From assembly GCA_964217375.1 (NCBI GenBank), contig CAXPJQ010000059.1, positions 11,208 through 75,207 of the forward strand: a stretch of 64,000 bases of DNA, read 5' to 3'. This DNA is from Bdellovibrionales bacterium. GTDB lineage: Archaea > Nanobdellota > Nanobdellia > Woesearchaeales > UBA583. The position numbers were made by a program, and so were the translations under genes. This document shows positions 28,217-49,689 of the stretch, piece after piece (position 1 is the stretch's first letter; each line of letters starts with the position of its first letter). The notes under the pieces were generated by a model. It ran no database searches, was not told the origin of the DNA, and saw only the letters and a program-made list of their open reading frames with translations.

Positions 28217-28290
28217 AAGAGAAAATGCATAAAAATAATTTAAAATACTTTGTATTAAATTTAAGGGAAAAAAATAAAAAAATAATTAAT

Positions 28291-32583: not shown

Positions 32584-32585
32584 TT

Positions 32586-34183: not shown

Positions 34184-34988
34184 AAGCCTCGTATTTTTTT
34201 AATCCATAATACCAAAGTAAATATGTTCCTAAAATAAAGAAAATAAAACTTGAAAGTATTACTTCAAAATACTTAAAAAATAAATAATTTCCTTTCAAAA
34301 TATTAACTAGAATAAAACTTCCCAAAGCAGAAGGGAAAATATAAATAAATTTCAAAAATAAATTATCCCTAAATGAATTTGGAGTGAATTCTTTTATTCT
34401 ATTATTTATCTTACTAGAAATATCAACTAAAAAAAAATTATTTTTAATAAAAAAAGCAGTTGAAATAAAAAAAGTTACAAATATTATTTGATAAATTGCA
34501 GAAAAAATAAAGTAAAATAAAAAGATAAAATTAAATTGATAAAAATAGAAAAGTAAAAATAGAAAAGATAAAAAAACTAAAGATGAAACAACTAAAACTG
34601 CTCCATTAAATCTAGTTGAAAAATAAAAAAATGGATTAATTGGTTTTGATAAAACAATATTTAATTTACCTTCTAATAAATCCCTATTTAATCTCTTAAC
34701 TGAAAAAACTATTACAAATTTTCCAAGTAATAATAAAATAAAAATAAACATTAAATAATCTACTTCATTCCAATTTGAAATTGAAGAAATTAAAGGAAAA
34801 AAAGCTAAATAAAAAGAAATCATAACTAAAATATAAACTAAATTAATTAGTAAAGCAGACCATAAATTAGCTTTATACTCTTTATTTTGTTTTAAAGCAA
34901 CACTAAAAATCTCAACTAAAACATCAAAATATTTAATGAAAATACTTCTATCTCTAAACTCTTTCATTTTTCTATCCAAAAGCCTCAT
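34176..34988 (-). CDS. ABC-2/DUF990-like permease paralog 6 (probable start at 'MKEFRDRSIF', about 34967)
   Basis: 'NKEYKANLW', 'GKLNIVLSKPINPFFYF', and C-terminal 'WYYGLKKYEAYG*'. Confidence 0.6.
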   Translation of the reverse strand: MRLLDRKMKEFRDRSIFIKYFDVLVEIFSVALKQNKEYKANLWSALLINLVYILVMISFYLAFFPLISSISNWNEVDYLMFIFILLLLGKFVIVFSVKRLNRDLLEGKLNIVLSKPINPFFYFSTRFNGAVLVVSSLVFLSFLFLLFYFYQFNFIFLFYFIFSAIYQIIFVTFFISTAFFIKNNFFLVDISSKINNRIKEFTPNSFRDNLFLKFIYIFPSALGSFILVNILKGNYLFFKYFEVILSSFIFFILGTYLLWYYGLKKYEAYG

Positions 34989-35784
34989 ATTTTTTTAAAC
35001 CATAATGCCAAATTATTTTTTCAAGAAAAATTAAAAAAATTAAAAATAAACCTCCTAAAATATAACTCAAATAAATTAAATCTAGAGAAACTTTTCCAAA
35101 GTAAAAAGAAATAGGTAAAACTCCATAAAGAGAAAAACCTATTATTAAACCAAAGAAAAATAAACTATTTTCAAATAATATTATTGGAAATTGGTGATAT
35201 AATCCGTCAAATCTTCTAAAAAATTTTAAAATTAAATAATTTTCTTTAATAAAAAAAGCAAGAGAATCTAAAACTCTAAATTCAAAAACTAAAATTCCTA
35301 TACCAATTAAGGAAATTAAAAAAGTTAGAATATAACTAGGATTTAAAAAGTTAAAATATAATCCAAAAAATAAAAATAAAATTAAATCAAAAAAGCAATA
35401 AAATAAAGCATAATATGGAAAATAAGTAATTGTACAAAAAAAATTAGTTAAAATTGGTTTAGTTAAATATAAATTTAAATCTCCTAATTTAATAGTATTT
35501 GAAAATTTTTTATACCACAAAAACAACCCAAAACTCATAACTAAAACTTGAGAATGTAAAAACATAAATATAATTTCAAAAATTGTAAAATCAATAAAAG
35601 AAAAATTATTTAATACAACTATTGTTGAAAAAATCATTACTAAATTAAATGTTAAATGGGAAATTGTTCCAGTATAAAACTGAGCCTTATATTGAAGAGC
35701 TTCTTTAATCCCAATACTAAATCTAGTTAAGAAAACATCAAAATATTTACCAATACAATTCCTTTTAACAAATTCTAAACTCAT
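34972..35784 (-). CDS. ABC-2/DUF990-like permease paralog 7
   Basis: 'ALQYKAQFY', 'GDLNLYLTKPILTNFF', and C-terminal 'WHYGLKKYEAFG*'. Confidence 0.6.
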   Translation of the reverse strand: MSLEFVKRNCIGKYFDVFLTRFSIGIKEALQYKAQFYTGTISHLTFNLVMIFSTIVVLNNFSFIDFTIFEIIFMFLHSQVLVMSFGLFLWYKKFSNTIKLGDLNLYLTKPILTNFFCTITYFPYYALFYCFFDLILFLFFGLYFNFLNPSYILTFLISLIGIGILVFEFRVLDSLAFFIKENYLILKFFRRFDGLYHQFPIILFENSLFFFGLIIGFSLYGVLPISFYFGKVSLDLIYLSYILGGLFLIFLIFLEKIIWHYGLKKYEAFG

Positions 35785-35793
35785 AAGAGAGTT

Positions 35794-36633
35794 TTAACCT
35801 CCAAAACTCTCTAATTTTGCAAATCCTTTTTTATATAAATATCTCATAAGTAATGCAAGTAAAATAATCCAGAAAGTGAAAATCCCCATAGCTTTTAATG
35901 CTTCAATTAAAGTTAATTTCCCAAGATATAGTGATGCAAAAGTAAATTCTAAATATAAAAAAGGAGTCCACGCTAAAAAGCTCTGCATCCACATTGGAAA
36001 TAAAGTTAGAGGTAATACCCTTCCTGATAAAATCCATAAAATTTGTTCAATTGATGCTTTAATCCCCCAAATTTCTACAAACCAAAAAGATAACCCTCCA
36101 ATAATTACATACAATACTATATCAAAAATTAACATTAAAAATAAATAAATTACAAATACAATCCAAATTGATCCACTTGGTGTTGGCAAATCAAATAGAT
36201 AAGTCATTACAATTAAAAGAATTGTAAATACAAATAAATTAACTACTTTAGATCCAATTCCATCTGTAAGTAAAGACTTTACAAAATTTACTGGCCTACA
36301 TAAAAAAATTGAAATATCTCCAGATTTAATTGTCTGAGAAATTCTATCTGCAATTTCTGAGGATCTTGCAGTATTTAAAAGTAAACCAATTATTAAATAA
36401 ACCATCATTTCCTGAAAAGTAAATCCTCCAATTGTAAATTCTGAAAGTGATGATACTAAAGCTGTTCCCTCAGCAAGAGCTGTCTCAAATTTTACTTGAT
36501 AAATATAAGACCAAATGTAATAAAAAAACACCCCCATAAATGCAGGTGTTACTAATGCTCCAATTAAATATGACTTATATTCAATTGAAGTTTTAAATCC
36601 AAGTTTAAAATATTCTAAATATTTGTTTGACAT
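35794..36633 (-). CDS. ABC-2/DUF990-like permease, divergent second type (first permease downstream of the nuclease gene)
   Basis: 'SIEYKSYLIGAL', 'GDISIFLCRPVNFVKS', and a divergent C-terminus 'YKKGFAKLESFGG*'. It is less Ile/Phe-biased than the other copies. Confidence 0.55.
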   Translation of the reverse strand: MSNKYLEYFKLGFKTSIEYKSYLIGALVTPAFMGVFFYYIWSYIYQVKFETALAEGTALVSSLSEFTIGGFTFQEMMVYLIIGLLLNTARSSEIADRISQTIKSGDISIFLCRPVNFVKSLLTDGIGSKVVNLFVFTILLIVMTYLFDLPTPSGSIWIVFVIYLFLMLIFDIVLYVIIGGLSFWFVEIWGIKASIEQILWILSGRVLPLTLFPMWMQSFLAWTPFLYLEFTFASLYLGKLTLIEALKAMGIFTFWIILLALLMRYLYKKGFAKLESFGG

Positions 36634-36636
36634 TTT

Positions 36637-37689
36637 TTAATTTAATTCCTCCAATGTTTTTTTTAACTCTTCTACACTTGGAAGCAACCCTTCAAATTTT
36701 TTAGGGAGACTTTTTGTAGTATTGTAGGTTCCAACACCAATTGGTTTTGAAGAATCTTTAAGAGAATATTCTACAATGGTTCTATTTTTTTCTTTACACA
36801 ATATAATTCCAATAGAAGGATTTTCATGTTTTAATTTAACTTTTTCATTTAGAGCAGATAAATAAAAATTCATTTTTCCTGCAAATTCTGGTTTAAATTC
36901 AGTTATTTTTAATTCAATTGCAACTAAACATTGGAGCTCTCTATGAAACAAAAGTACATCAATAAAATATTCTTGATCTCCTATTTCTAATTTATATTGT
37001 GTTCCAACTAAAGAAAAAAAGCCTCCAAATTCTTGTAAACTTTTTTTAATATGTAAAATTAAAGATTCTTCTAGTTCTCTTTCTGAATGTTCTGCACTAA
37101 GCTCTAAAAAATCAAAAGTATATTCATCTTTTATTGCAAGTTTTGCCTGAGACTTAAGATGATTAGGTAAACTTTTTTCAAAATTTGTTTGATTTGTCAT
37201 ATACTTTTCATAAGATTGGTTTTCAATTTGATGTTTTAAAACATTTTTTGTCCATCCAAATTTTTTTGTCATCTTAATGTAAAACTCTCTTTCTAATTCA
37301 TTTTTACATTTTTCAAAAATTAAAACATTTTTTGTCCAACTAATTTCACGCACCAATGGTGCGAGTTTTTCATTATCAAAATAAGAAGAGTAAAATGCTT
37401 TCATTCTTCTAAGAGTTCCAGCTGAGAAACCTGAAATTCCTGGAAATTCTAATTGTAATTCTTTTGAAAGGTTCTCAACAACAGAATCTCCCCAAGAATA
37501 TTTTTTTTGTTTCTCAACAATAAATTTACCTAAATTCCAATATAAATTAATTAATTCTTTATTTACAGTTTTAAGTGCTTTATATTGAGATTCTAAAATT
37601 AAAGATTTCACCTCAACTACAAAATTTTTAAAATTTTTATCTAAATCTGACATTTTATTCTCCTTTATTTTGTTCATACATCTCTGCAA
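36637..37689 (-). CDS. YhcG/DUF1016-family PD-(D/E)xK nuclease (RecB-like restriction-endonuclease fold); probable start at 'MSDLDKNF', about 37653
   Basis: N-terminal DUF1016 block 'NKELINLYWNLGKFIVEKQKKYSWGDSVVENLSKELQLEFPGISGFSAGTLRRMKAFYSSY'. C-terminal nuclease core 'EYFIDVLLFHRELQCLVAIELKITEFKPEFAGKMNFYLS…IGIILCKEKN', in which D, E and K form the PD-(D/E)xK triad. Confidence 0.6.
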   Translation of the reverse strand: MQRCMNKIKENKMSDLDKNFKNFVVEVKSLILESQYKALKTVNKELINLYWNLGKFIVEKQKKYSWGDSVVENLSKELQLEFPGISGFSAGTLRRMKAFYSSYFDNEKLAPLVREISWTKNVLIFEKCKNELEREFYIKMTKKFGWTKNVLKHQIENQSYEKYMTNQTNFEKSLPNHLKSQAKLAIKDEYTFDFLELSAEHSERELEESLILHIKKSLQEFGGFFSLVGTQYKLEIGDQEYFIDVLLFHRELQCLVAIELKITEFKPEFAGKMNFYLSALNEKVKLKHENPSIGIILCKEKNRTIVEYSLKDSSKPIGVGTYNTTKSLPKKFEGLLPSVEELKKTLEELN

Positions 37690-38686
37690 TTATATGTTCT
37701 AAATTTGGTTCTTGAATTGATAAATCATGAATTTCAATTGATTTTACAACATCTGTTAAAAATTTACCTAAAGAGTTTTTCATAGGAAATTCAAAAATAA
37801 TTGATTTAGGGATTTCACTTTTTCTATTTGGAACTTTTTCTTTTAATTTATTCCACAATTCTTTATCTAAAACTTTTTTATAATGAATTGTAACATCTTT
37901 TGAATTTGCATAAGTTTCTTTGAAATTTTTAACTGAACCCTCATATGCAAGAGTTCCTTTATCAATTACTACAATTCTTTGACATAACTCTTCAATATCA
38001 TCCATGTCATGAGTTGTAATCATAATTGTAACTTCCTCTTCCTTGTTAATTTGTTTTAAAAAATTTCTAATTGAAATTTTAGCTTGTGCATCAAGTCCAA
38101 TTGTTGGTTCATCTAAAAAAACAATTTTTGGTTTATGTAGAAATGAAGCCGCAAGTTCACATCTCATTTTCTCTCCAAGAGATAACATCCGATATGGTGT
38201 TTCAAAAAAAGGTTCAATCCCAAGCATTTCAACTAAATATTTTACTCTTTTTTGATAAAATTCCTCAGATAATCCATAAATTGCTTTAAATAATCTAAAT
38301 GAATCTCTAACTGGGATATCATATGCAAGAATTGATCTTTGTCCAAATACAACTCCAATGTTTTGAGTATATTCATTTCTATTTTCAATTGGATTTAAAT
38401 TCCCCATTACTTTAATTTCTCCTGAAGTTGGATGTAAAATTCCAGTAAGCATTTTAATTGTAGTTGATTTACCTGCACCATTTGGCCCAAGATATCCTAA
38501 AATTTCTCCCTTTTTAACTTCTAAATTAATATCTTCCACAGCTACTTTTTTTTCCCATTCTCTATAAAACCAAGATAACCTTTTTTTAACTGTAGAGAGA
38601 TTTTTTTCCTTTTTAGGAACTTTAAATTCTTTTTTCAAATCCTTAACTTCAATAATATTTTTCATTTTTTTAATTGATAAAAACAT
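37655..38686 (-). CDS. ABC transporter ATP-binding protein (COG4586-like, partner of the DUF990 permeases)
   Basis: Walker A 'GPNGAGKSTTIKMLTG', signature 'LSLGEKMRCELAAS', Walker B 'IVFLDEPTIGLD', and H-loop 'ITTHD'. About 330 aa with a C-terminal extension. Confidence 0.85.
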   Translation of the reverse strand: MFLSIKKMKNIIEVKDLKKEFKVPKKEKNLSTVKKRLSWFYREWEKKVAVEDINLEVKKGEILGYLGPNGAGKSTTIKMLTGILHPTSGEIKVMGNLNPIENRNEYTQNIGVVFGQRSILAYDIPVRDSFRLFKAIYGLSEEFYQKRVKYLVEMLGIEPFFETPYRMLSLGEKMRCELAASFLHKPKIVFLDEPTIGLDAQAKISIRNFLKQINKEEEVTIMITTHDMDDIEELCQRIVVIDKGTLAYEGSVKNFKETYANSKDVTIHYKKVLDKELWNKLKEKVPNRKSEIPKSIIFEFPMKNSLGKFLTDVVKSIEIHDLSIQEPNLEHIIAEMYEQNKGE

Positions 38687-38818: not shown

Positions 38819-39601
38819 TTAACCAAAAGCCTCATACTTTTTTAGTCCTTGTCTCCAAATAAATAAGTTAATAACTCCTAATATAAATAAATATGAAATT
38901 AATACTAATATATAGTTATAAAAATAAGTTAAGTTTCCAAGTAAGATTTGATATGTTAAATAACAAACAACTCCTTGAGGTAAAAAAACAAATATTATCT
39001 TAGCAAAATAGATATGATTCTCAAAAGCTGCATATGTAAATCTTTGAGATATCTCCTCAACACTTTTTGACATTAATTTAATTGATGAACTGTCTTTGAT
39101 AAAAAAACCTAAGATTTCTATAGTATTTGAAAAAAATAATGATCCCATAAATCCTATTATCCAAAATAAAAAACTTAGAAAATAATTTTCAAGTGTATAT
39201 AAAAATAAAACTATTACTAGAATAATTAAATATATGAAAAGTACTACTACCTTTCCCTGTTTAAAATTATTTGTTAAATATACAAAATAAGTAGATATAG
39301 GTTTAAATAAATGAATATTTAAATTTCCTTTTAATAATTCCTTACTAAAGTTAGAAAAATAAAAAATATTGTTTAATCTTAATGAAAATTTTGTAAGAAT
39401 ATAAAAAAATATTAAATCATATACGTCCCAGTTTAAAATAAAATCTCCAACTAAATCAATATATACTAAATAAAATATTATTGTAATTCCAAAAGTAAAA
39501 ATTTCTTTTAAAAAAATAGCATAAAAATCAGATTTATATTCTAAAAATGACTTAATTGAAATAATTAATTTCTCATAAAAATATTCAAAATATTTATTCA
39601 T
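38819..39601 (-). CDS. ABC-2/DUF990-like permease paralog (upstream pair, member 1)
   Basis: 'SFLEYKSDFY', 'GNLNIHLFKPISTYF', and C-terminal 'WRQGLKKYEAFG*'. Confidence 0.6.
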   Translation of the reverse strand: MNKYFEYFYEKLIISIKSFLEYKSDFYAIFLKEIFTFGITIIFYLVYIDLVGDFILNWDVYDLIFFYILTKFSLRLNNIFYFSNFSKELLKGNLNIHLFKPISTYFVYLTNNFKQGKVVVLFIYLIILVIVLFLYTLENYFLSFLFWIIGFMGSLFFSNTIEILGFFIKDSSSIKLMSKSVEEISQRFTYAAFENHIYFAKIIFVFLPQGVVCYLTYQILLGNLTYFYNYILVLISYLFILGVINLFIWRQGLKKYEAFG

Positions 39602-39604
39602 ATT

Positions 39605-40381
39605 TTAACCAAAAGCCTCATACTTTTTCAAGCCAATTTTCCATAAAATATAATTTCCAAATATAAAAATTAAAAATGAAATAATAATAAATATAAAATA
39701 CTTAGAAAGATAATCAAATCTATTATTAACTAATTCAATAAAATAAAAACCAAATAAAGCAGTAGGCAAGTAAAATAAAAAATTTAATTTAGTACCCTCA
39801 AATACCTTTGGAGTAAATCTATCATTTAGGTATGCAACATCTTTGCTAATTCTTATGATAAAATTATTTTGTTTTATAAAAAAAGCTAATGACTCAAAAA
39901 AATCTGTATATACTATGTAATATATTAAACTAAAAAACAACAACAAAATTCCCTGAAATATATTTTGATAAGGTCCATAAAGGTATAATATAATTAAAAA
40001 AAATAAAAAAATAAAAGTTGTAAAAATTGCTCCATCCTTTGCTCTCGAAGACATTCCAATAAAAGGATTAATTGGTTTAGATTTCCAGATATTTAAATCT
40101 CCTAAAAGTAATTGTTTATTTAAACTCCTTAAAATAAAAAAATATGTTCCTTTACTTATCATTTGAATAGTTACATATAGTAAAATAAAGTCTAAATAAG
40201 TCCAACTTAAAAAATTAAGAGATAAGGATTGAATAATTGAATAAAAAAATAGATATACAATAGTCAAAGAAATATCAAAATAAACAATACTCCAAAAATT
40301 AATAGGATATTCTTTAATTTGTTTAAATGCTTGAAAATATATCTCTTTCATAAAATTAAAGTGATTTTTTACAATGTTCAT
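39605..40381 (-). CDS. ABC-2/DUF990-like permease paralog (upstream pair, member 2)
   Basis: 'IKEYPINFW', 'GDLNIWKSKPINPFIGM', and C-terminal 'WKIGLKKYEAFG*'. Its N-terminal third is near-identical to that of paralog 5. Confidence 0.6.
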   Translation of the reverse strand: MNIVKNHFNFMKEIYFQAFKQIKEYPINFWSIVYFDISLTIVYLFFYSIIQSLSLNFLSWTYLDFILLYVTIQMISKGTYFFILRSLNKQLLLGDLNIWKSKPINPFIGMSSRAKDGAIFTTFIFLFFLIILYLYGPYQNIFQGILLLFFSLIYYIVYTDFFESLAFFIKQNNFIIRISKDVAYLNDRFTPKVFEGTKLNFLFYLPTALFGFYFIELVNNRFDYLSKYFIFIIISFLIFIFGNYILWKIGLKKYEAFG

Positions 40382-42117
40382 TTTTGCATATTTAACATAT
40401 TATAAAATTTAGACTTTTTATCTTTTATTAATTCTTTGTAGTTACCTTGTTCAATTATTTTTCCTTGTTCAAATACAAAAATTCTATCTACATTTTTTAA
40501 TGTGGATAATCTATGTGCAATAATTAAAATTGTTTTATTTTTAATTAAGTCAATTCCTTTTTGAATTTTCATTTCAGTTTTAGAATCAAGAGCTGAAGTT
40601 GCCTCATCTAGAATTAAGATCTCTGAATTTTTACAAATTGCTCTTGCAATTCCAACTCTTTGTCTTTGCCCTCCAGATAATTTATATCCTTTCTCACCAA
40701 TAATTGTATCAAGTCCATTTGGTAATTCTTTAATTACCTCATTAAGTTGAGATATTTCAATTGCTTTTCTCAAAGTTTTGGAATCTATCTCCTTAAACAT
40801 TGTAATATTTTCTTTGAGAGTTACATTTAACATCTCAGTTTCTTGCATAACTTGAGATAAATTATCTAAAAGAGATTGATGTGAAAAATCATAGTAATTA
40901 GTATGATCTACTTTTATTTCTCCTTCATTTATTTGATAAAGTCCTAAAAATAATTTTGAAAGAGTTGATTTTCCTGAACCTGAATGTCCAACAATTCCAA
41001 TTTTTTCATGTTTTTTAATTTTAAATGAAATGTTATCTAAATTATTTTTTTTATTATCATAAGAGAAAGATACATTATTGAAAGAAATTGTTTTCCAATC
41101 TTTTTTAAATTCTTCTTCTCCAAAATACTTTTCTTCTTTAGTTTCAAAAATAGGTATGATTCTATTCATTGCAGATCTAATTGATATAAGATCATTAAGT
41201 ATTGAATTTGATCTCCAAAATGATGCTGTAATTTGATTAAAATATACAAATGAAGTAGCAATAAATCCAACTTCAACTAGTTCATTTGATACAAAGTGTC
41301 CTAGTAATAATAAGAAAAAAAATAAACCAAAAGCGATTAAGTAATTCACATGTTTTGTTCTAGTGTTTCCGATTTTAATTGCTCTGAACTGAACTTCTTT
41401 GAAAGTAATTTCTCCTTTTTTCATAGATGATTTCAAAGATTGAGAAGAACCACTAGATTTTATGGATAAGATATTGTTTGCTCCTTCATTAAGAGACCCT
41501 GAAACTTTTTCTAATACTTTATTTTTCTCTTCTTCTATATCAGCTTGCTTTTTTAAAAAAGATTTCATAATTAAAATAAAAACTCCAACATAGACTATAA
41601 AAAATAATAAAAAATACAAATCTAAAAATAAAAAAATAATAATAACTCCTGAAAAAGTTAATATTAACCCAAGAGCATCTTGATTAAATACATTAATTAA
41701 CTGTCTATAACTACTAGATCCATTGTTTACTTTTTGAAGTTTTGAACCTGAACCATCTTTTTCGTGCCATTTTAATGAAAAATTTAAAAGTTTTTCAAAA
41801 GCAAAATTTCTTGCTTTAAAAGTTGTATTAACACCAATCTCCTTTAGTTTTCTTTTTGCAACCATTCTCACTTGAGAAGTTAATAATCCTGAAAAGAGAA
41901 TTATTCCTGTGTATATGTAAAATAAATTTAATGAATCTCCTTTATTATATTCTGTAAAAAAATTAATTATCAACCCAATAATATATGGGATAATTAGTGT
42001 ATTGGAATGAGATAAAAAATTAAGACTCATATAAAATGAAAACTTTAATCTCTCACCCTCTAAAAAGTGCCATAATGACTTAAACATATGTGTCCATGTA
42101 ATTATTTCTTTGTTCAT
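40378..42117 (-). CDS. fused TMD-NBD ABC exporter (MsbA/multidrug-exporter type)
   Basis: Six predicted TM helices, then Walker A 'GHSGSGKSTLSKLF', signature 'LSGGQRQRVGIARA', Walker B 'ILILDEATSALD', and H-loop 'IIAHRLS'. A 4-nt ATGA overlap joins it to the neighbouring genes on both sides. Confidence 0.85.
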   Translation of the reverse strand: MNKEIITWTHMFKSLWHFLEGERLKFSFYMSLNFLSHSNTLIIPYIIGLIINFFTEYNKGDSLNLFYIYTGIILFSGLLTSQVRMVAKRKLKEIGVNTTFKARNFAFEKLLNFSLKWHEKDGSGSKLQKVNNGSSSYRQLINVFNQDALGLILTFSGVIIIFLFLDLYFLLFFIVYVGVFILIMKSFLKKQADIEEEKNKVLEKVSGSLNEGANNILSIKSSGSSQSLKSSMKKGEITFKEVQFRAIKIGNTRTKHVNYLIAFGLFFFLLLLGHFVSNELVEVGFIATSFVYFNQITASFWRSNSILNDLISIRSAMNRIIPIFETKEEKYFGEEEFKKDWKTISFNNVSFSYDNKKNNLDNISFKIKKHEKIGIVGHSGSGKSTLSKLFLGLYQINEGEIKVDHTNYYDFSHQSLLDNLSQVMQETEMLNVTLKENITMFKEIDSKTLRKAIEISQLNEVIKELPNGLDTIIGEKGYKLSGGQRQRVGIARAICKNSEILILDEATSALDSKTEMKIQKGIDLIKNKTILIIAHRLSTLKNVDRIFVFEQGKIIEQGNYKELIKDKKSKFYNMLNMQK

Positions 42118-43073
42118 TTTAGTATGTTATGAATTTCTTCTAATTTATTTAAGCAATTATTTCTCATGGTATCTTTTCTTTTTATTGTCTGAGGCTCATC
42201 TAAGTTCCTCCATTTATGAGACTTTAATTTGGATAGTCTACTTAAATTTTTCATCCATGTATAAAAATAATATAATCTCTCCCAATTTTCAGGCAATTCA
42301 TTATATTTTGAATATCCTTTTACAATTGAAGTTTTGTACTTAAATTTTTCATCACCAAAATCAAATCCAGAAAAAAGGTCTTCTATTGTCCCACTAACTC
42401 TTGCGAATTCGAAATCTATGATACCATGAATTAGGTTATTTTTTATTATAAGGTTTGTGTTTGATGCATCTCCATGACATAATCTAGGTTCTGATTCTAA
42501 AGAAAGTAAGTGCTTATGTTTTTGATAAAATTGAGATTCTGTTTCAATTTGTTCTTCTGAGATAATATTATCTTCTTTTAATCTTTCAAACATTTTATTA
42601 ATTTCATTTTCTTTTTTTTCTTGCCATGATTCATATGAATGTCTTTGTTCTAGTTTATAATTTAATTCAGAATATTTTTCATATTTAAAAGAATGAAACA
42701 TTCCATAAATCTCACCATATTGTTCAAATAATTTCTCTTTATTTGTTATTTTATTGTAAACCTTCTTTAATGATTTTCCTTCAATTTTTTCTAAAATAAT
42801 AAATGAATAATTTACTTCTTTTTTTGAATAATTATCATAAATAATATCTGCAATTGGAAAGTTTGGATATTTATTTTGAAGTAATTCTTTTAGGGCTTTT
42901 TGTTTTAATGCTAATTTTTTATCTTCGAGTAATTTTATTTTCTTGAAAACTATACCTTTGTTTTCTAGCTTGATATCATAAGCTACATTATTATATCCCT
43001 CTTCAAATTCTTTTATTTCTAAGATTTTTTCATTAGGAAAAATTTTAGTTAGTAATTGTTTTATTTCTTTCAT
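42114..43073 (-). CDS. aminoglycoside-phosphotransferase (APH)/choline-kinase-family small-molecule kinase
   Basis: Brenner motif 'LCHGDASNTNLII' and the downstream 'IIDFEFARVSG', which is the DFG equivalent. 319 aa. Confidence 0.65.
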   Translation of the reverse strand: MKEIKQLLTKIFPNEKILEIKEFEEGYNNVAYDIKLENKGIVFKKIKLLEDKKLALKQKALKELLQNKYPNFPIADIIYDNYSKKEVNYSFIILEKIEGKSLKKVYNKITNKEKLFEQYGEIYGMFHSFKYEKYSELNYKLEQRHSYESWQEKKENEINKMFERLKEDNIISEEQIETESQFYQKHKHLLSLESEPRLCHGDASNTNLIIKNNLIHGIIDFEFARVSGTIEDLFSGFDFGDEKFKYKTSIVKGYSKYNELPENWERLYYFYTWMKNLSRLSKLKSHKWRNLDEPQTIKRKDTMRNNCLNKLEEIHNILK

Positions 43074-43480
43074 TTTAATTGTTTAATTAATTCTATTTCA
43101 TTTAATGAATTAGTTTTATTTGTCTTTTGATAATTTAGTTTCTCATAAAACATTATTGCTTTTTTATTATCTTCTTCTACATATAATTTTATTTGAAAGA
43201 AATTTTTAATTTTTATTTCATTTTCTAAGAATTTGATTAAATTTGAACCAAAACCCTTTGATCTCAAATTCTCATCAATATATATATCTTCAAGAATTGG
43301 AATTTTTTTCCACAAAATTCTACCATGTCCAATTGGGTTATCATTGTCCCATATAATATAAAATAAACTTTCTTTTTTCTTTTGAGACTCTAATCTCTTT
43401 TCAAAAGGTTCTCTTACACTCCATTTTTTTTCTATAATATCTAGATCTGATTCTTGAAGATTTTTTATTTGGATATTCAT
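43070..43480 (-). CDS. GNAT-family N-acetyltransferase
   Basis: 136 aa. Motif A region 'ENLRSKGFGSNLIKFLENE' (R/Q-x-x-G-x-G/A). Confidence 0.6.
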   Translation of the reverse strand: MNIQIKNLQESDLDIIEKKWSVREPFEKRLESQKKKESLFYIIWDNDNPIGHGRILWKKIPILEDIYIDENLRSKGFGSNLIKFLENEIKIKNFFQIKLYVEEDNKKAIMFYEKLNYQKTNKTNSLNEIELIKQLK

Positions 43481-44094
43481 TCTATAATTAACACCTCTCC
43501 ATCTCTTAGAGTTCTATATGGAATATTATTTTCAATACAATATTGAACTTCTTTTTCAATATCTTCTGATTCAGGGTGATCCGAATCAAAGTGAGGTAGA
43601 ATCATATAATCTAAAATACCTAATCCTTCCCAAATTGTTTCTTTTATTTCCTTATATGGAAAATCATAAGGATCATCTACAATTTGTAATGACTTCATAT
43701 CTTTATACAAAATACAAAGAGCTGCACTAAATCCTGCATATAAAAAATCATTATTTAAATTTGTTTGTATATATCTATCAAATCCCGATAATTTCATTGC
43801 TTGTCTTAGAACAAAAGTATTTCCTCCATTAATCCAAATAGCTTTTACTTCATCTAATTTTTTAAATAATTCTTTTGATTTACCAAAGTAATCTCTTAAA
43901 TCTAATACTTCAGGTTCAAGCCCTAATTGTTTTAAACTATTAATTTGATTTGACATATTAATTTTTTTTCTTTCTAAATCCTTAGCTGTAAAATCCATTG
44001 CATTTGGAATATAGAAAATTTTTTTATTTGGAATCATTTCTTTTAATTTGTTTCCTTGATTTCCTATTTTATATGATGATAAATAAAATTTCAT
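43477..44094 (-). CDS. peptidase S51 (dipeptidase E/cyanophycinase-like) family protein
   Basis: 'AIWINGGNTFVLRQAM' matches the GGNTF nucleophile-elbow region of S51 peptidases. Size is about 205 aa. Confidence 0.5.
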   Translation of the reverse strand: MKFYLSSYKIGNQGNKLKEMIPNKKIFYIPNAMDFTAKDLERKKINMSNQINSLKQLGLEPEVLDLRDYFGKSKELFKKLDEVKAIWINGGNTFVLRQAMKLSGFDRYIQTNLNNDFLYAGFSAALCILYKDMKSLQIVDDPYDFPYKEIKETIWEGLGILDYMILPHFDSDHPESEDIEKEVQYCIENNIPYRTLRDGEVLIIE

Positions 44095-44624
44095 TTTTCT
44101 AAGTCCTCTCTAAGAAAATCATATTCTAGACAATCATACCAATTCCCCTTATCATCATGCCATGCTTTTCTAAATTGCCCCGCTTTTAGAAATCCAGCCT
44201 TTGAAAAGAGATTTTGCATTGCTACATTATCTTCTCTTGTTGAGCCTTCAATTCTTCTCACTTTTGGATAGTTTTTGAAAATATAGTTAATCATAAAACT
44301 GATTATTTCTAATCCATATCCTTTTCCTCTTTTTTTTGAGTTGATTCTAATGTCAAATTTAGGTGCTTCAGTTTCATCATTAATTAGATCATCTAATTTT
44401 AAGAATGCACAAATTTTTTCTTTCTCATAAATCAAAAAAGTAACTTGTTTTCTATTTGTGTAATAAGTTCCTTTGAGTCTCTCTTCGAGTTCTTTTCTTG
44501 TAAGTTTTGACGAACCGTGATATTTCCATTCTTCTGAGAGTAAAAATTGAATAAGATCTTCTGACAATTTCCTTGTAAATTTTTTATATATTAATTTCAT
44601 TTTTCTAGTTTCATTTGCATCCAA
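44091..44624 (-). CDS. GNAT-family N-acetyltransferase
   Basis: 'RINSKKRGKGYGLEIISFMINY' is motif A. 177 aa. Confidence 0.6.
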   Translation of the reverse strand: MDANETRKMKLIYKKFTRKLSEDLIQFLLSEEWKYHGSSKLTRKELEERLKGTYYTNRKQVTFLIYEKEKICAFLKLDDLINDETEAPKFDIRINSKKRGKGYGLEIISFMINYIFKNYPKVRRIEGSTREDNVAMQNLFSKAGFLKAGQFRKAWHDDKGNWYDCLEYDFLREDLEK

Positions 44625-45055
44625 TATGCTACAGTTTTAAATCCTAAATTTTGATATAATTCTAAATTACTCTCAAATGAATTTAATTCAACTTGATCAC
44701 ATCTCCCTTCTTTAGCAATTTGTTTTGCTTTTTCAATTAATTTTTTTGCATAACCTTTTTTTCTTTCATTTTTATTTACATATAGTTTTCCTATGATAAA
44801 TTTTTTCTTACCACTTTTTCCTTCTCTTATTGAATAGGTAAGATATCCAATTTGATTTTCAAGTATAATTGTATTACTTTTTGCTTTATCTAAAGAAAGA
44901 ATTTCTTCTTTAAACTTTTCTAAGCCAAATTTATTTGGTTTAAAGTCAGGATTACTTGAAAACATATCTTCAAATGTTGATAAAATATAATTCAAATCTT
45001 TTTCTTTATTGAAGTTTCTTATGTTCATTTTTCTGTTGGTGTTTTTATCCTCCAT
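44597..45055 (-). CDS. GNAT-family N-acetyltransferase (paralog of 49690..50133)
   Basis: 'VNKNERKKGYAKKLIEKAKQIAKE' is motif A. The N-terminus 'STFEDMFSSN' and C-terminus 'ELYQNLGFKTVAYWMQMKL' parallel those of the 49690..50133 protein. Confidence 0.6.
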   Translation of the reverse strand: MEDKNTNRKMNIRNFNKEKDLNYILSTFEDMFSSNPDFKPNKFGLEKFKEEILSLDKAKSNTIILENQIGYLTYSIREGKSGKKKFIIGKLYVNKNERKKGYAKKLIEKAKQIAKEGRCDQVELNSFESNLELYQNLGFKTVAYWMQMKLEK

Positions 45056-45792
45056 CCATCTACTTCAAGACCTCCCATGTTATCTAAAACATATTTTGAA
45101 ATTTTCTTTGAATATAGATACATTTTTTCTGTATCTGTTTCCTCGATTGCTTTAATGAATAAAGTTACAAATTTTTTGTCTGGAAATTCTGGTAAGTTAT
45201 ATTTTTTTTGATCTTTTTTTTCTTTTAAGAGTCTTCTAACTTTATTAATTGATACATTATGCCATCCTAAGAACTTAGAATATGTTTGAAATGTTTTATA
45301 CAATACATTATGATACACAAATGTAAAATCATTTTTTCCTCTTTTATATACTTCTTCTAAATTATCTTGTTCATCCCAAAGAAGATATTTTGAAATTTCA
45401 TTCTCTGTTTTACTTGGTTTTTTGAAGGTTTTATTCATATACTTTTTTGATAAATTTACTAATTCTTTTACTGAATTATTTTTATCAAAAATAATTTTTC
45501 CAGTTGTAAACATATGTGCTTCTGTTGATCTATTATTCTTGTAATTTCCTTCTAAATATTTTTCAATTTGGTGTGGGGGATTAACAAAATATTCAATCAA
45601 AAATCCATCTACAACTTCATTTCCTCTGAGTCTCCAAGTACAAGAATTATCTAAAATAATATGCAAATCAATGTCTGAGTTTTCAGTAGGTCTTCCAGTT
45701 ACATAACTTCCACAAACTAATGCTCCTTGGACTTCTTTTTTGTTCTCCCAATTTTTGAGAAATTTTCGTGTAGCTCTTTCCCAGTCTTTCAT
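45025..45792 (-). CDS. nucleotidyltransferase-fold protein (ANT/KNTase/Lnu-like minimal NTase)
   Basis: 'GALVCGSYVTGRPTENSDIDLHIIL' follows the GS…D-x-D pattern. The 255-aa size is similar to ANT(4'). Confidence 0.6.
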   Translation of the reverse strand: MKDWERATRKFLKNWENKKEVQGALVCGSYVTGRPTENSDIDLHIILDNSCTWRLRGNEVVDGFLIEYFVNPPHQIEKYLEGNYKNNRSTEAHMFTTGKIIFDKNNSVKELVNLSKKYMNKTFKKPSKTENEISKYLLWDEQDNLEEVYKRGKNDFTFVYHNVLYKTFQTYSKFLGWHNVSINKVRRLLKEKKDQKKYNLPEFPDKKFVTLFIKAIEETDTEKMYLYSKKISKYVLDNMGGLEVDGWRIKTPTEK

Positions 45793-45849: not shown

Positions 45850-46617
45850 TTATCTGTTTATTCTCTCTTCAAGAGTTTTTCCAAAATCATCTATAAAAGT
45901 AATCATTTCATCTGAGAAAGTCTTTGGAATATTATTTAATTCTCTTTGTTGTTCAAGTGCTTCTTCAAGTTCTTTTTTATTTTTTAATGTACTTACTCCT
46001 TTTGGTAAGTTATGAACAACAGATACTATTTGATCAAATTCCTCATAAGTCATATCAAATCTAGGTTTAGGTGGATTTTTACTCTCTTGATATTCAATAG
46101 AGTCACTTAATCCCATAACTGGAGAATAGCTTAGAGCAAGATGATTTGGAAAAAGATGAGGTACAACAATTTCAAAATATGGTGTGTTAATTCCAATTCC
46201 TGAATTTAGAGTTAAATATGCTCCAGACATTTCATTTCTCCCTTTTGGAATTCCTTTTACTCTCTTATATCTTGGCGAATCTAAATCATCTCCTGGAAAT
46301 TCTAAAAAAGTAACCTCTTCTTGAAAGGGTAATATCTGATCAAAAATCAATCCATATTTATGTGTTGATAGGTGATTTTGAGTATGTTGTAAAGATCTAT
46401 AAAAATCAAGAGTGTTGACATATTCAAAACCTTCATGATAAAGAGTTTCCCTTAGAGGATTTACACCACAACCTTCGTTTAAGTAAGAACAAAACATTTG
46501 TTCATTACCTGTTTCTATATCAAGTAAGTTTGAGAGTCCTTGTACTTCAAGTACTTTTATGAAACGAACAGGCGTATCTAAAAATTTCTCTTCTATCTTT
46601 GTTTGTATTAATTCCAT
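45850..46617 (-). CDS. hypothetical protein
   Basis: 255-aa ORF with no recognised motifs. It sits in the same co-directional string. Confidence 0.3.
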   Translation of the reverse strand: MELIQTKIEEKFLDTPVRFIKVLEVQGLSNLLDIETGNEQMFCSYLNEGCGVNPLRETLYHEGFEYVNTLDFYRSLQHTQNHLSTHKYGLIFDQILPFQEEVTFLEFPGDDLDSPRYKRVKGIPKGRNEMSGAYLTLNSGIGINTPYFEIVVPHLFPNHLALSYSPVMGLSDSIEYQESKNPPKPRFDMTYEEFDQIVSVVHNLPKGVSTLKNKKELEEALEQQRELNNIPKTFSDEMITFIDDFGKTLEERINR

Positions 46618-46620
46618 ATT

Positions 46621-47169
46621 TTATTTTTTCTCTCTTGAGCTATCAATTTTTTCTGCAATTCTCTGAGCTTCTCTATATTGGTTTGGTGTATTATTTTGAT
46701 TTCCTAATGAATTAAGTAATTTTTTTATTAATTCTCTGGAACTATTTCCTGAAGTTAAACCACTAATAGACTCAATTCTCCCATTTACATTATCAATAGT
46801 ATCTTCCAAACCTGGTGCTACTTGAGTTGAAAAATAATGTGCTTGGGCATCACCATATAACCATGGAAAAACTGGCAACTTATTTTCTCCTAAAAGAGCT
46901 TTTTCTCCAGTCTCTAATTGAATAGTATCAAAAAAACCATCACAGTTTGTATCATAAAAATTCGTACTATTTTTAATCTCAATTGAATTAATACAATAAT
47001 TTGATCTATCTGTTGTATATGTAACTTGTGTGTTATCTCCAATACTCATTTTGTATTGCTCTACTTCTTTTGCATCTAAACTTGCTGAATTTAATGCAAG
47101 TAGAGATGTTCCTAATATTTTTGTTAATTTTTTCATTTTTCTTTGTAAATTATAGTAGTAATTAAACAT
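46621..47169 (-). CDS. small secreted protein (signal peptide; probable start at 'MKKLTKILG')
   Basis: 'MKKLTKILGTSLLALNSASLDA' is a signal peptide. Two Cys are present ('NYCINS', 'TNCDGF'). Confidence 0.35.
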   Translation of the reverse strand: MFNYYYNLQRKMKKLTKILGTSLLALNSASLDAKEVEQYKMSIGDNTQVTYTTDRSNYCINSIEIKNSTNFYDTNCDGFFDTIQLETGEKALLGENKLPVFPWLYGDAQAHYFSTQVAPGLEDTIDNVNGRIESISGLTSGNSSRELIKKLLNSLGNQNNTPNQYREAQRIAEKIDSSREKK

Positions 47170-47381
47170 ATTTAAAATTAAATTTATTATTTTTTACAAA
47201 AATCTAATAAGTTTTAATTTCAATTAGAGTTTTTACTAATGATGTAATAATTAGTAGTATCTAAAACTACTTTAATCAAGGTTTTCACTTTGCTGATTAC
47301 TATTATTTATATTGTAAATATTAATAGTAACTTAAACTATATTAAATTAAATTGAGTTTTTTCTACAATTTTGGTTAAATA

Positions 47382-47840
47382 TTATTTCAATTTATTAAAT
47401 TCTCTTTCTATAATTGAGGTTAATCCTTTAATTTTTTGGACTCCTTCTTTGTAAGGTAAGTTCATATCAATATCTGAAACTATAAGTTCAACTCCATTAT
47501 CATCAATATAGTCATATTCATCTGCAAACTGAAAAATTGGAGAGTAACCTTGATTTTTCAATTCTTTTTCAATATTTGAAATAGTTAAATATCCTTTGAT
47601 AATTTTATCCATGTAATGTCCTTTTTTTTCTTCATTAATTCCATTATTATTGAGATAATTTATTTCTAAAATAAGAACTTTCTGTCGCTCAAAAAGTTCA
47701 AAATGCATATAACCCTGATCTACATCTAATGAAGGATTTCTATAATAAGTTAAACCATTTCCGTGGTCCCCTACAAGTTTAAATCCTAATTGCTCTAATG
47801 TGTGATATACACCTATTGGCGTTATTTGTTTGTTTTCCAT
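47382..47840 (-). CDS. hypothetical protein
   Basis: 152-aa ORF. It is the first gene of the minus-strand string and is divergent from the Lrp gene. Confidence 0.3.
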   Translation of the reverse strand: MENKQITPIGVYHTLEQLGFKLVGDHGNGLTYYRNPSLDVDQGYMHFELFERQKVLILEINYLNNNGINEEKKGHYMDKIIKGYLTISNIEKELKNQGYSPIFQFADEYDYIDDNGVELIVSDIDMNLPYKEGVQKIKGLTSIIEREFNKLK

Positions 47841-47941: not shown

Positions 47942-48910
47942 ATGAAATTAGATAAAAAAGATACATTATTATTAGAAATTTTAGAAACAAATTACAGAAC
48001 TACTAATTCGGAAATTGCTAAAAAGCTCAATATTAGTAAACAAAATGTGGAATATAGAATAAAAAAACTCGAAAAAGAAGAAATTATTTCCGGATATTAT
48101 CCTGTTTTAAATTTTGGAAAACTTGGGTATTTTTATATAAGAATTACATTCTCACTTCAGCATATGCTTGAAAATAAAAAAAATGAATTATTCCAATATC
48201 TTAAAAATAAAGAAGAATTTTTTTGGGTATTTCATCTCTCAGGTCCTTGTGACATTGGAGCTGCTCTTTTAGTTAAAGATTTTAAAACGTATAAAGAAAA
48301 AATCAATGAGTTATATGACAAATTTGGAGAATATATCTCAAATCAAGAAGAAACCATAATGACAACTCTAAGGTATTATTCATATCCATATTCTAAAGAG
48401 AATTCGAAAAGATTACTTTGTTCTCAACAAACTCCATCCTCAGAAATTATTAGTTTAGATGAAACAGATGAAATGATATTTAAGAGCCTTTGTTCTGATA
48501 AAAGACTCTCAGTTGTTGAAATTTCAAATACTTTAAATTTAACTTCAAAAATTATTTCTTATAGAATTAAAAAAATGATTGAACAAGAAATAATTTTAGC
48601 ATTTAGGGCAATTATTGATTATAAGAAAATAGGTTTTGAATATTATAAATTATTTATTAAATTGTCATCTTATGATTCTTCTAAAGTTAAAGACTTTAAA
48701 AAATTCTTAGCATCTCATAATAAAGTATTATATGAAGTTGAAGCAATTGGAATTAGTGATAAAATTGATATTGAAGTTTTAGTTTCAAGTAATTCTGAAT
48801 TACTTGAATTTCAAGATGAATTACGTAGAGAGTTTCCTGAACTAATTGTTTCTTTTGAAACTATGATTTTTAGAGAAAATATAAAAACAAGTTACTTTCC
48901 TAAAAATTAA
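47942..48910 (+). CDS. tandem-duplicated Lrp/AsnC-family transcriptional regulator (two HTH_AsnC + RAM modules)
   Basis: HTH 1 'LLEILETNYRTTNSEIAKKLNISKQNVEYRIKKLEKEEII'. HTH 2 'DEMIFKSLCSDKRLSVVEISNTLNLTSKIISYRIKKMIEQEII'. 322 aa. Confidence 0.6.
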   Translation: MKLDKKDTLLLEILETNYRTTNSEIAKKLNISKQNVEYRIKKLEKEEIISGYYPVLNFGKLGYFYIRITFSLQHMLENKKNELFQYLKNKEEFFWVFHLSGPCDIGAALLVKDFKTYKEKINELYDKFGEYISNQEETIMTTLRYYSYPYSKENSKRLLCSQQTPSSEIISLDETDEMIFKSLCSDKRLSVVEISNTLNLTSKIISYRIKKMIEQEIILAFRAIIDYKKIGFEYYKLFIKLSSYDSSKVKDFKKFLASHNKVLYEVEAIGISDKIDIEVLVSSNSELLEFQDELRREFPELIVSFETMIFRENIKTSYFPKN

Positions 48911-48945
48911 GTTCTTTTTATAAATTGTAAAAATATCTACATATT

Positions 48946-49653: not shown

Positions 49654-49689
49654 GATAAGTATTATAAATAAAGAAAATAATTACTAACT

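Follow-up and report, generated by a model that had tools for sequence, protein, structure and literature searches.

What do six enzyme genes chained to transporter genes do in a tiny symbiotic archaeon, and are they tied to the aminoglycosides, whose three classical inactivation chemistries they recall? We analysed a 64-kb stretch of DNA (the window) from a Woesearchaeota/Nanoarchaeota-like DPANN archaeon. The array lies on the minus strand and is transcribed from a nucleotidyltransferase gene (NTase; 45025..45792, 255 aa, Pfam Polbeta/NTP_transf_2) through GNAT acetyltransferase A (44597..45028, 143 aa, Acetyltransf_1/7/10), GNAT B (44091..44600, 169 aa, 47 bits to Acetyltransf_3, the RimJ/RimL-like type), a PepE-like S51 serine peptidase (43477..44094, 205 aa, Peptidase_S51, 70 bits), GNAT C (43070..43480, 136 aa, Acetyltransf_1/7/10/FR47) and an APH/choline-kinase-fold kinase (42114..43073, 319 aa, APH, 56 bits) to a fused TMD-NBD ABC exporter of the half-transporter kind (40378..42117, 579 aa, ABC_membrane and ABC_tran). 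Two permease genes of ABC2_membrane_6, which we take to be the DUF990/EVE family, follow (38819..40381), and then the rest of a co-directional efflux array (30180..38686, minus strand), with an ABC ATPase, a nuclease insertion and eight more DUF990 permease paralogues. The original prediction had described the enzyme run, its family labels and 4-nt overlaps from gene to gene and to the exporter; Pfam matches and ORF translations bore this out, and each of HGDASNTN, IIDFE, GGNTF and GS...SDIDL was present, with the catalytic motifs of all six enzymes intact. The enzymes had also been said to follow the exporter, which holds in plus-strand coordinates only; in transcription they precede it.

Reading of the DNA placed an ATGA overlap at all seven junctions from the NTase to the first permease, after which the permease pair is separated by a 3-nt gap. 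The unbroken chain presupposes ATG starts at 45028 (GNAT A) and 44600 (GNAT B), both of which were also chosen in an independent annotation of the public contig, identical in sequence. When all co-directional gene pairs in the window were compared, these seven were the only -4 overlaps; therefore, chaining of this kind does not characterise the genome at large. This speaks against the rather unlikely explanation that unrelated housekeeping genes, that is, RimI/RimJ/Naa-type protein N-acetyltransferases, a PepE-like peptide-scavenging dipeptidase and a metabolite or protein kinase, are co-transcribed in a compact genome without a common purpose. The chain is preceded by three minus-strand genes (45850..47840), whose products of 152, 182 and 255 aa, the second with a signal-peptide-like N-terminus, gave no match in Pfam, NCBIfam, PADLOC or PHROG. 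Beyond them, a divergent plus-strand gene (47942..48910) with two AsnC-type wHTH domains (Pfam HTH_24/HTH_AsnC-type) is a candidate regulator.

The NTase combines an N-terminal Pol-beta-type domain (G28-S29...D40-x-D42) with a helical C-terminal domain and belongs to a tight family of ∼255 aa proteins in which GS, DxD, E67 and D103 are invariant. Its AF2 model (pLDDT 95.8) was matched by Foldseek to the uncharacterised protein 3C18 best of all, and also to ANT(4')-Ia/KNTase (TM 0.60, E 4e-8), the closest fold among functionally characterised structures, to ANT(4')-IIb, LinB and ANT(6), and to the Hailong HalB NTase. The model thus predicts an ANT(4')/KNTase-like two-domain fold. The ANT-type enzymes share with the NTase its length, both domains and the GS...DxD motif (Foldseek probability 1.0, TM 0.5-0.6), but they are only 11-12% identical to it; the NTase matched no curated ANT/Lnu model, has a basic pI and, within its own family, conserves other residues.

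A similar picture was obtained for the kinase, which shares the HxDxxxxN and DFE motifs of APH(2'') kinases and hygromycin B 7''-O-kinase (Pfam APH, PF01636) in the form of a Brenner motif, HGDASNTN, and a Mg-binding IIDFE. When its profile was compared with the PDB, APH(2'')-Id/IVa scored highest over the full length (E 4e-8), hygromycin B 7''-O-kinase came next and APH(2'')-IIIa was also close; its structure model (pLDDT 60) was too poor for use. In contrast to these enzymes, the kinase belongs to a family of ∼33 members, all from DPANN-type metagenomes, and its NCBIfam AMR scores reached 19-30 bits where the cutoffs are 205-625 (30 against 205 for APH(3')). Matches to the Bud32 and homoserine kinase models were about equally weak.

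A dedicated locus for resistance to aminoglycosides or similar compounds, joining O-phosphorylation, N-acetylation and O-adenylylation to efflux, could account for these nearest structures and for the weak AAC(6')/AAC(3) model matches of the GNATs. However, the PDB is heavily enriched in APH and ANT structures, which biases nearest-structure results towards them, and scores lay 5-30 times under the cutoffs of all AMR models, so that the three chemistries named in the original prediction stand at the superfamily level but not as membership of resistance families. Characterised aminoglycoside-modifying enzymes are typically acidic, whereas the transferases of the array (NTase, GNATs and kinase) have a pI of 8.8-9.5, and the kinase family one of 8.8-10.0. 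Moreover, neither the NTase nor the kinase had a homologue among 72,556 plasmids, and close relatives can dispense with the kinase and with two of the three GNATs. Enzymes that modify aminoglycosides and are bifunctional or clustered, AAC(6')-Ie-APH(2'')-Ia for one, resemble the array in that different chemistries are physically linked, by translational coupling in the array and by fusion in P0112, a natural kinase-NTase fusion whose NTase is of a different family from that of the window; the array enzymes differ from them in lacking membership at the sequence level. We consider the aminoglycoside reading only weakly supported and such a locus very unlikely.

The three GNATs could not be assigned: their matches to polyamine, N-alpha-protein, AAC(6') and streptothricin acetyltransferases were weak and of much the same strength. 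GNAT A, which has a paralogue at 49690-50133 (E 2e-26), found Naa30 as its top PDB match; GNAT B gave weak and mixed PDB matches to AAC(6'), SpeG and polyamine acetyltransferases, with neither MccE nor RimL found in that search; GNAT C matches were likewise mixed and weak and included Naa50, ARD1 and HPA2. The Naa-type matches of GNATs A and C, together with rimI ranking among the top NCBIfam matches of all three, are what housekeeping acetyltransferases would give. The S51 peptidase shares with the PepE/S51 dipeptidases Lmo0363, DR_1070 and PepE the GGNTF signature and, in alignment, the nucleophile Ser123 (GFSAA motif) and His168 (LPH motif), but scored 33 bits against the PepE equivalog cutoff of 156 bits. 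Members of its family are common in CPR/DPANN-type contigs, where they stand alone, and NTase and kinase homologues are frequently stand-alone too, which again suits a housekeeping role; none of 80 S51 loci carried the NTase family or the kinase, and an S51 peptidase adjoins an NTase in a Patescibacteria genome (L024).

We then compared the array among close relatives. The stretch from the NTase to the second permease held four different gene sets in four relatives: that of the window, S51-GNAT C-esterase-kinase-exporter in L010, AAA_14/DUF4143-S51 in L014, and a different GNAT with remnants in L183. GNAT A is missing from L010, the 88%-identity relative, through a precise indel; GNAT B is missing from all three relatives; GNAT C occurs in L010 and is missing from L014 and L183; the S51 peptidase is kept in L010 and L014, and the kinase-exporter pair in L010. 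Housekeeping genes would not be expected to vary in this way between relatives sharing 88-98% protein identity. The flanks are conserved: the three upstream genes have orthologues upstream of the NTase in all three relatives, the AsnC-type gene has orthologues at the same array edge in L014 and L183, and the 38819-39601 permease has orthologues downstream of the slot in the same two. At its 5' end the array is anchored by the conserved NTase, and the second permease is the conserved 3' anchor of the variable slot. Near the array, relatives also carry a ParE toxin, AAA_14/DUF4143, BRO-N and the PDC-S02 nuclease, cargo of a kind typically seen in variable islands.

The whole-gene indels fall exactly on the stop/start overlap, with microhomologies of ∼11 nt, and their breakpoints were located at AGAAAAATGAA and AATTAAAATGA. 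The slot recalls integron gene-cassette arrays, in which promoter-less, co-oriented accessory genes also vary between relatives within a conserved platform, but it has no integrase, attC-like inverted repeats or any intergenic space. Its genes appear instead to be exchanged through 11-nt microhomologies where stop and start codons overlap.

The exporter resembles MsbA, NdvA and bacteriocin exporters generically, below all equivalog cutoffs, and is translationally coupled to the kinase, whose stop codon overlaps its start. Of the permeases, 38819-39601 matches Pfam ABC2_membrane_6, and 39605-40381, which has no Pfam match of its own, is homologous by phmmer to it and to the L026 and L014 permeases. 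The single ATPase of the efflux array (37655-38686) matches that of L026 with 533 bits and adjoins the nuclease insertion, YhcG-like and of PDDEXK type (36637-37689; PADLOC match PDC-S02). DUF990 proteins make up TCDB family 3.A.1.141, Ethyl Viologen Exporter, which is classed as a xenobiotic exporter (PMC5417439). Like EvrABC, the window combines such permeases with a cognate ATPase, but it has ten permease paralogues, instead of two, for one ATPase and carries enzyme cargo inside the operon.

Whether the enzymes keep together, a point on which the original prediction had partly staked its reading, depends on the distance of the genomes compared: they are clustered in close relatives, with differing contents, and mostly scattered in distant ones. 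Unrelated neighbours surround the NTase homologue at ∼70 of 80 loci, and the family's patchy distribution crosses domains, as expected of horizontally exchanged accessory genes. Pairings of NTase with efflux, NTase with GNAT and efflux, and kinase with transporter nevertheless recur. The NTase family adjoins DUF990/EVE-type efflux genes repeatedly, in Nanoarchaeia, another archaeon and gut Bacilli, the last with a GNAT between NTase and efflux genes (NTase-GNAT-ATPase-permease-permease in L093 and L096). In L026 the NTase stands between ATPase and permeases (ATPase-BRO-NTase-four permeases). L047 reads exporter-kinase-exporter-kinase-MNT-...-NTase, and L049 is another independent recurrence of modification with efflux. 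These recurrences and the translational coupling favour the link between modification and export in the original prediction, and independent assembly of similar enzyme-transporter arrays in other lineages argues against housekeeping.

Kinase homologues are also chained to ABC or MFS transporters, including a kinase-MFS-kinase and a triple-kinase-MFS array, and some adjoin MFS transporters with sugar isomerase-like AP_endonuc_2 genes, contexts compatible with salvage too, not with detoxification alone. DPANN archaea rely on hosts for metabolites, and the array might take up host amino sugars, amino alcohols or cyclitols, trap them by phosphorylation and nucleotidylate or acetylate them for the envelope, in the manner of the lic-type choline pathway or NahK-type sugar salvage; the weak Choline_kinase and Fructosamin_kin Pfam matches of the kinase family agree with this, and P0112 could represent consecutive steps. 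Yet the coupled transporters are of exporter type, the second-step activating enzymes of known salvage pathways have another NTase fold, and a fixed pathway would not be expected to vary in gene content as the array does, which leaves salvage distinctly unlikely. Tailoring of, and self-immunity to, an endogenous secreted product, or microcin C-like peptide-nucleotide immunity through the Acetyltransf_3 GNAT and the peptidase, is extremely improbable: GNAT B does lie directly 5' of the peptidase in a chain with an exporter, and in another archaeon a kinase homologue has a CDPS-GNAT pair ∼7 kb away, but no synthetase, CDPS, MccB-like enzyme or plausible precursor ORF was found in the window, the peptidase is S51 and not the S66 MccF type, and GNAT B had no MccE/RimL match in the PDB search and is missing from all three relatives. 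With neither biosynthetic core genes nor a precursor peptide found, the endogenous product suggested in the original prediction is not supported.

We tentatively favour, at slightly under an even chance, a hypervariable cargo slot in a long chromosomal efflux operon, whose detoxification-type enzymes act independently and are coupled to efflux. Between the ANT(4')-fold NTase (5') and the DUF990/EVE-type ABC-2 permeases (3'), the slot would take up GNATs, S51 peptidase, esterase, the APH-fold kinase together with an ABC exporter of its own, or AAA ATPase. Whole genes would come and go precisely at the ATGA overlap through the ∼11-nt microhomologies, so that translational coupling would always be preserved. 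The enzymes may each inactivate incoming small molecules, be they xenobiotics, antibiotics or toxic host metabolites, by adenylylation, acetylation, phosphorylation, or peptide or ester hydrolysis, and the co-translated exporters would expel the compounds or their products. The putative substrates need not be aminoglycosides. Against this reading stand the AMR scores below cutoff, the unassignable GNATs, the basic pI values, the S51 and NTase loci with mostly unrelated neighbours, the salvage-like contexts of some kinase homologues and the lack of NTase and kinase homologues among the plasmids. Taken together, the array of this tiny symbiotic archaeon looks like a swappable detoxification toolkit that nothing ties specifically to aminoglycosides.

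The six enzymes and the exporter are encoded in a single minus-strand chain. In transcription order, it comprises the nucleotidyltransferase (NTase, 45792-45025), the acetyltransferases GNAT_A (45028-44597) and GNAT_B (44600-44091), an S51 peptidase (44094-43477), a third acetyltransferase, GNAT_C (43480-43070), an APH-fold kinase (43073-42114), a fused ABC exporter (42117-40378) and, at the end of the chain, a pair of permeases of the DUF990 type (40381-38819). A gap of 132 nt separates them from the rest of the co-directional array, which extends down to 30180 and consists of an ABC ATPase, a YhcG-like nuclease and a further eight DUF990 permease paralogues. The 4-nt overlaps noticed initially were verified in the DNA, which reads ATGA at each of the seven gene boundaries that link the NTase to the first permease, mostly within an AAAATGA context. 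Since these seven are the only -4 overlaps among all co-directional gene pairs of the window, the chain was confirmed as a property of the array and not a genome-wide habit. Every enzyme family named in the original prediction was backed by Pfam, and the motifs quoted for them could be read in the translations. The sole correction to that observation concerns gene order: the enzymes had been described as following the exporter and in the transcript they lie upstream of it.

The window has a G+C content of ∼24% and encodes informational proteins of archaeal type (LonB, aIF5B, the PriS primase subunit, archaeal PheRS alpha and beta) together with FtsZ. An identical kinase sequence is encoded on a MAG contig (GCA_041240545.1), and the closest homologues with a taxonomic name belong to MAGs of Candidatus Woesearchaeota, Nanoarchaeota and Nanoarchaeales. 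We infer a DPANN archaeon as the host and a chromosomal location for the locus. Homologues of the NTase and the kinase were absent from 72,556 plasmids, and a link with a mobile resistome was rejected on this ground.

Comparison of four related contigs, including the window, revealed common flanks: a double-wHTH regulator, a 152-aa gene, a 182-aa-like gene, the NTase and, on the other side, a permease orthologous to that at 38819-39601. The slot between the last two differs in each of them. In the window it holds GNAT_A, GNAT_B, the S51 peptidase, GNAT_C, the kinase, the exporter and the first permease; in L010, whose kinase is 88% identical, it holds the S51 peptidase, GNAT_C, a 377-aa esterase, the kinase and the exporter; in L014 (NTase 75% identical), an AAA_14/DUF4143 ATPase, the S51 peptidase and a 42-aa remnant; and in L183 (NTase 86% identical), remnants together with an unrelated GNAT, which occupies the same ATGA junction. 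DNA alignment with L010 showed that GNAT_A and GNAT_B (45023-44101) together constitute a clean indel with AGAAAAATGAA at both edges, and that the L010 esterase is likewise a clean indel, bounded by AATTAAAATGA. The same neighbourhood of the relatives contains island-type cargo (a ParE toxin, AAA_14/DUF4143 and BRO-N), and that of the window contains the YhcG-like nuclease. The region is a hypervariable accessory region and not a fixed pathway. An integron-like structure was rejected, as no attC-like repeats were found; the cassettes have no intergenic DNA, no integrase was present among the scanned neighbours and a repeat search returned only low-complexity chance repeats.

On the plus strand, a regulator-methyltransferase-GNAT unit (47942-50133) adjoins the array; its GNAT (49690-50133) and GNAT_A are paralogues. 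In L183 (1118-2563) the methyltransferase is missing and the GNAT lies directly 3′ of the regulator, forming another clean indel. In 7 of 80 genomes, a SAM-methyltransferase is likewise encoded no more than 3 kb from the NTase family. Upstream of the NTase, three conserved minus-strand genes (45850-47840) encode proteins of 152 aa, of 182 aa with a signal-peptide-like N-terminus, and of 255 aa with an acidic pI of 4.9; none of the three gave a family in Pfam, NCBIfam, PADLOC or PHROGs.

The NTase belongs to a tight family of ∼255 aa with a patchy distribution, which includes members from DPANN, Bathyarchaeia, Lokiarchaeum, Patescibacteria, Bacillaceae, gut Bacilli, Zixibacteria and Phycisphaerae. 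Its predicted model (pLDDT 95.8) shows the two domains of the ANT(4′)/KNTase type, a Pol-beta NTase domain and a helical substrate-binding domain, and Foldseek matched it to 6NMK, 6UN8, 1KNY and 1KAN (TM 0.59-0.61, E 4e-8 to 1e-6). Apart from the uncharacterised JCSG protein 3C18, the model most resembles ANT(4′)-Ia/KNTase (TM 0.60), followed by ANT(4′)-IIb, LinB, ANT(6) and the Hailong HalB NTase (11-17% identity). Therefore, the description of this enzyme as ANT-like is right at the level of the predicted fold but does not extend to sequence-level membership, identity with the ANT(4′)/KNTase enzymes being only 11-12%. Its sole NCBIfam match was an MntA fragment (23 bits; cutoff 60), the ANT and Lnu models of NCBIfam gave none, and a PDB profile search, which aligned only the GS...DxD catalytic segment, led us to reject a sequence-level link with ANT enzymes.

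The kinase is a member of the APH superfamily (Pfam PF01636, 56.5 bits; cutoff 23.2), and both its catalytic loop (H200-G-D202...N207) and the Mg-binding D220 are invariant in the family alignment. It scored below the curated NCBIfam resistance cutoffs, with 30.3 bits for APH_3p (cutoff 205), 19 for APH(2″)-IIa (625) and 25 for APH(3′)-I (400), and the Bud32 and homoserine kinase models matched it as strongly as APH(3′). In PDB searches, the sequence alone barely reached APH(2″) structures (E about 1e-3); the family profile matched APH(2″)-Id/IVa over its full length (E 4e-8) and then hygromycin B 7″-O-kinase and APH(2″)-IIIa, a ranking to be read with the over-representation of such antibiotic kinases in the PDB in mind. 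An AF2 model built from 10 sequences was left out of the fold search and pocket analysis because its pLDDT was only 60. With about 33 clusters in 5.8 billion proteins, the kinase family is small, and DPANN-type contigs are its only sources. Some homologues stand alone, others form an APH-MFS-APH arrangement and, in a further case, an MFS transporter is chained to three APH genes. A salvage or activation module, supported by the MFS and sugar-isomerase surroundings of some homologues, is a serious rival explanation that we nevertheless consider quite unlikely.

A natural kinase-NTase fusion of 577 aa, P0112, was found at 2262-3995 of contig L179. Its kinase part is 56% identical to the window's kinase and its C-terminal part is a minimal NTase that has a helical domain. 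Only one contig, of 5.5 kb, carries the fusion, which may be an assembly artefact. Because the fused NTase belongs to a different family (hhalign probability 10%), P0112 was rejected as a Rosetta stone for the NTase of the window.

The three GNATs belong to the GNAT superfamily, scoring above the Pfam threshold and preserving the acetyl-CoA motif A (R/Q-x-x-G-x-G/A), which reads RKKGYA, RGKGYG and RSKGFG in the translations. Their best scores against the curated AAC(6′), AAC(3) and Sat/Sat4 models were 16-26 bits, against cutoffs of 140-380, and in PDB and NCBIfam their matches to polyamine, N-alpha-protein, AAC(6′) and streptothricin acetyltransferases were all weak and of about the same strength. 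Basic pI values were obtained for the NTase, GNATs and kinase (8.8-9.5; 8.8-10.0 across the kinase family) and aminoglycoside-modifying enzymes are typically acidic; this argues only weakly against an aminoglycoside role, as the proteome is Lys-rich. The original prediction had read the three modification chemistries as pointing to aminoglycosides. Every match to an antimicrobial-resistance model fell far below its cutoff, and we regard specificity of the locus for these compounds as improbable.

The peptidase is an S51 member (Pfam Peptidase_S51, 70.2 bits; cutoff 23.9), with the nucleophile Ser123 and His168 aligning with the motifs of Lmo0363, DR_1070 and PepE. It failed the models for the PepE aspartyl dipeptidase equivalog (33 bits against 156) and cyanophycinase (19.7 against 126.6). 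Among 80 metagenomic loci whose S51 genes are 50-62% identical to it, the NTase family and the kinase are both absent. Its presence in the slot is probably fortuitous, the enzyme being a general peptidase, and we rejected a general functional pairing with this NTase family. In six of these 80 loci, the S51 gene is directly followed by another gene, of 267 aa, which lacks a Pfam match and has a GS...DxD motif like that of an NTase (L135:970-2453, L143, L144, L145, L158 and L164, all CPR-like contigs). This is a second, different S51-NTase adjacency, and the loci probably come from closely related CPR lineages. Immunity of the microcin C type, formed by the MccE GNAT and the S66 (LD-carboxypeptidase-like) peptidase MccF, does not fit a peptidase of family S51, and GNAT_B, of the Acetyltransf_3 type, had no MccE/RimL match in the PDB at E<=0.01. 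More broadly, that the locus makes a product or protects its own producer is very improbable, as no core genes were found; a RiPP or other biosynthetic reading was discarded in the face of no precursor-like small ORFs and no synthetases.

Across 80 species-level genomes, the neighbourhoods of the NTase family were mostly unrelated. A few associations recur in very different lineages. In one, the NTase lies in or beside an operon of an ATPase and DUF990 permeases, as in L026 and L049. In L026 (Nanoarchaeia) it sits between the ATPase and four permeases, and in the gut Bacilli L093 and L096 the order is NTase-GNAT(Acetyltransf_3)-ATPase-permease-permease. In L024 (Patescibacteria) the NTase is followed by a close S51 homologue. 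The archaeal order represented by L047 presents exporter, unknown gene, APH, exporter, APH, MNT, Na/H exchanger, NTase and CYTH and, farther along, a methyltransferase and a cytidine-deaminase-like gene, with many 4-nt overlaps at the junctions. Long ATGA-chained arrays of other DPANN-type archaea (L047:32-11908 and JGI 3300072015 contigs) mix APH-fold kinases, ABC/MFS transporters, MNT-type NTases and AP_endonuc_2 with methyltransferase, cytidine-deaminase-like and unknown ~200-aa genes; they look like a recurrent, undescribed architecture. On a Woesearchaeota-type contig (L005/L007:2319-3474), a cyclodipeptide synthase (CDPS) gene overlaps a GNAT gene beside a double-wHTH regulator, ∼7 kb from a kinase homologue.

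As judged from sequence, the ABC2_membrane_6 permeases and their cognate ABC ATPase would form an ABC-2 exporter of the EVE/DUF990 type, a family listed in TCDB under the name Ethyl Viologen Exporter (3.A.1.141; PMC5417439). This family normally has two permeases per ATPase; unusually, the window has ten tandem paralogues (30180-36633 and 38819-40381, minus strand) to one ABC ATPase (37655-38686). Nearly all their C-termini read GLKKYEA(F/Y)G, two TTG-start ORFs of the permease array open with an identical MENWPKKIRGFWIKM, and the ORF at 33368-34183 ends in a string resembling it, IKKIRGLWIKK; these similarities suggest recombination or frameshifts among the paralogues. Between the ATPase and the permeases lies a YhcG-like PDDEXK nuclease (DUF1016_N and YhcG_C; 36637-37689, minus strand) that scored 453 bits against the PADLOC candidate defence family PDC-S02, and in L026 its place is taken by a BRO-N protein and the NTase. 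Directly 3′ of the permease array, the minus-strand region 25016-30117 encodes two proteins, one of 1066 aa that has a signal-like N-terminus as well as a D/E/G-rich acidic stretch, and one of 608 aa with no Pfam match.

Taken together, the best fit, which we hold tentatively, is a set of modular, independently acting enzymes that inactivate small molecules and whose expression is hard-wired to efflux. We favour it because the transporters are of the exporter type, the group-transfer and hydrolytic enzymes are intact, whole genes are present or absent at strain level, other island-type cargo shares the region and similar enzyme-transporter arrays have been re-assembled independently elsewhere. 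Of the earlier detoxification proposal, the general idea of detoxification coupled to an exporter is retained, and the aminoglycoside specificity and the biosynthetic or self-immunity option are dropped. Alternatively, the enzymes could be unrelated housekeeping transferases co-transcribed in a compact genome, a serious rival that we regard as unlikely; the locus would then be just a compact operon in a variable region. Anti-phage defence was discarded as the role of the six enzymes for lack of PADLOC support and PHROG matches: in the PADLOC scan five of them had no match and the NTase only a weak MNT-like one (<=23 bits). Rfam and tRNA scans of the region found nothing.

A further proposal, to which we assign a low probability, is that cassettes are exchanged at the ATGA junctions without a recombinase and supply a reshufflable detoxification toolkit. 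Whole enzyme genes would be swapped at the overlapping stop/start codons (…AAAATGA…) by microhomology-mediated recombination, giving ultra-small DPANN archaea rapidly reshuffled, always co-translated detoxifying transferases wired to efflux pumps. The toolkit would include the undescribed ANT(4′)-fold NTase family and the DPANN-specific APH-like kinase family, with new substrate specificities.

The array proteins are all divergent representatives of superfamilies already known, and clusters combining modification with efflux are likewise of a known kind. What is new is the archaeal DPANN setting, the two uncharacterised families (the ANT(4′)-fold NTase and the DPANN-specific APH-like kinase) and the way in which cassettes are cleanly gained and lost where stop and start codons overlap. 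If the detoxification reading is true, in silico claims of "resistance-like" gene richness in ultra-small CPR bacteria (PMC8651080) would reach DPANN archaea, and two enzyme families deserving biochemistry, a patchy cross-domain NTase and a DPANN-restricted kinase, would be defined. Operons would have a simple route to gain or lose whole genes with translational coupling unbroken, and host-dependent archaea with tiny genomes would invest in a flexible module that pairs modifying enzymes with efflux for chemical defence.
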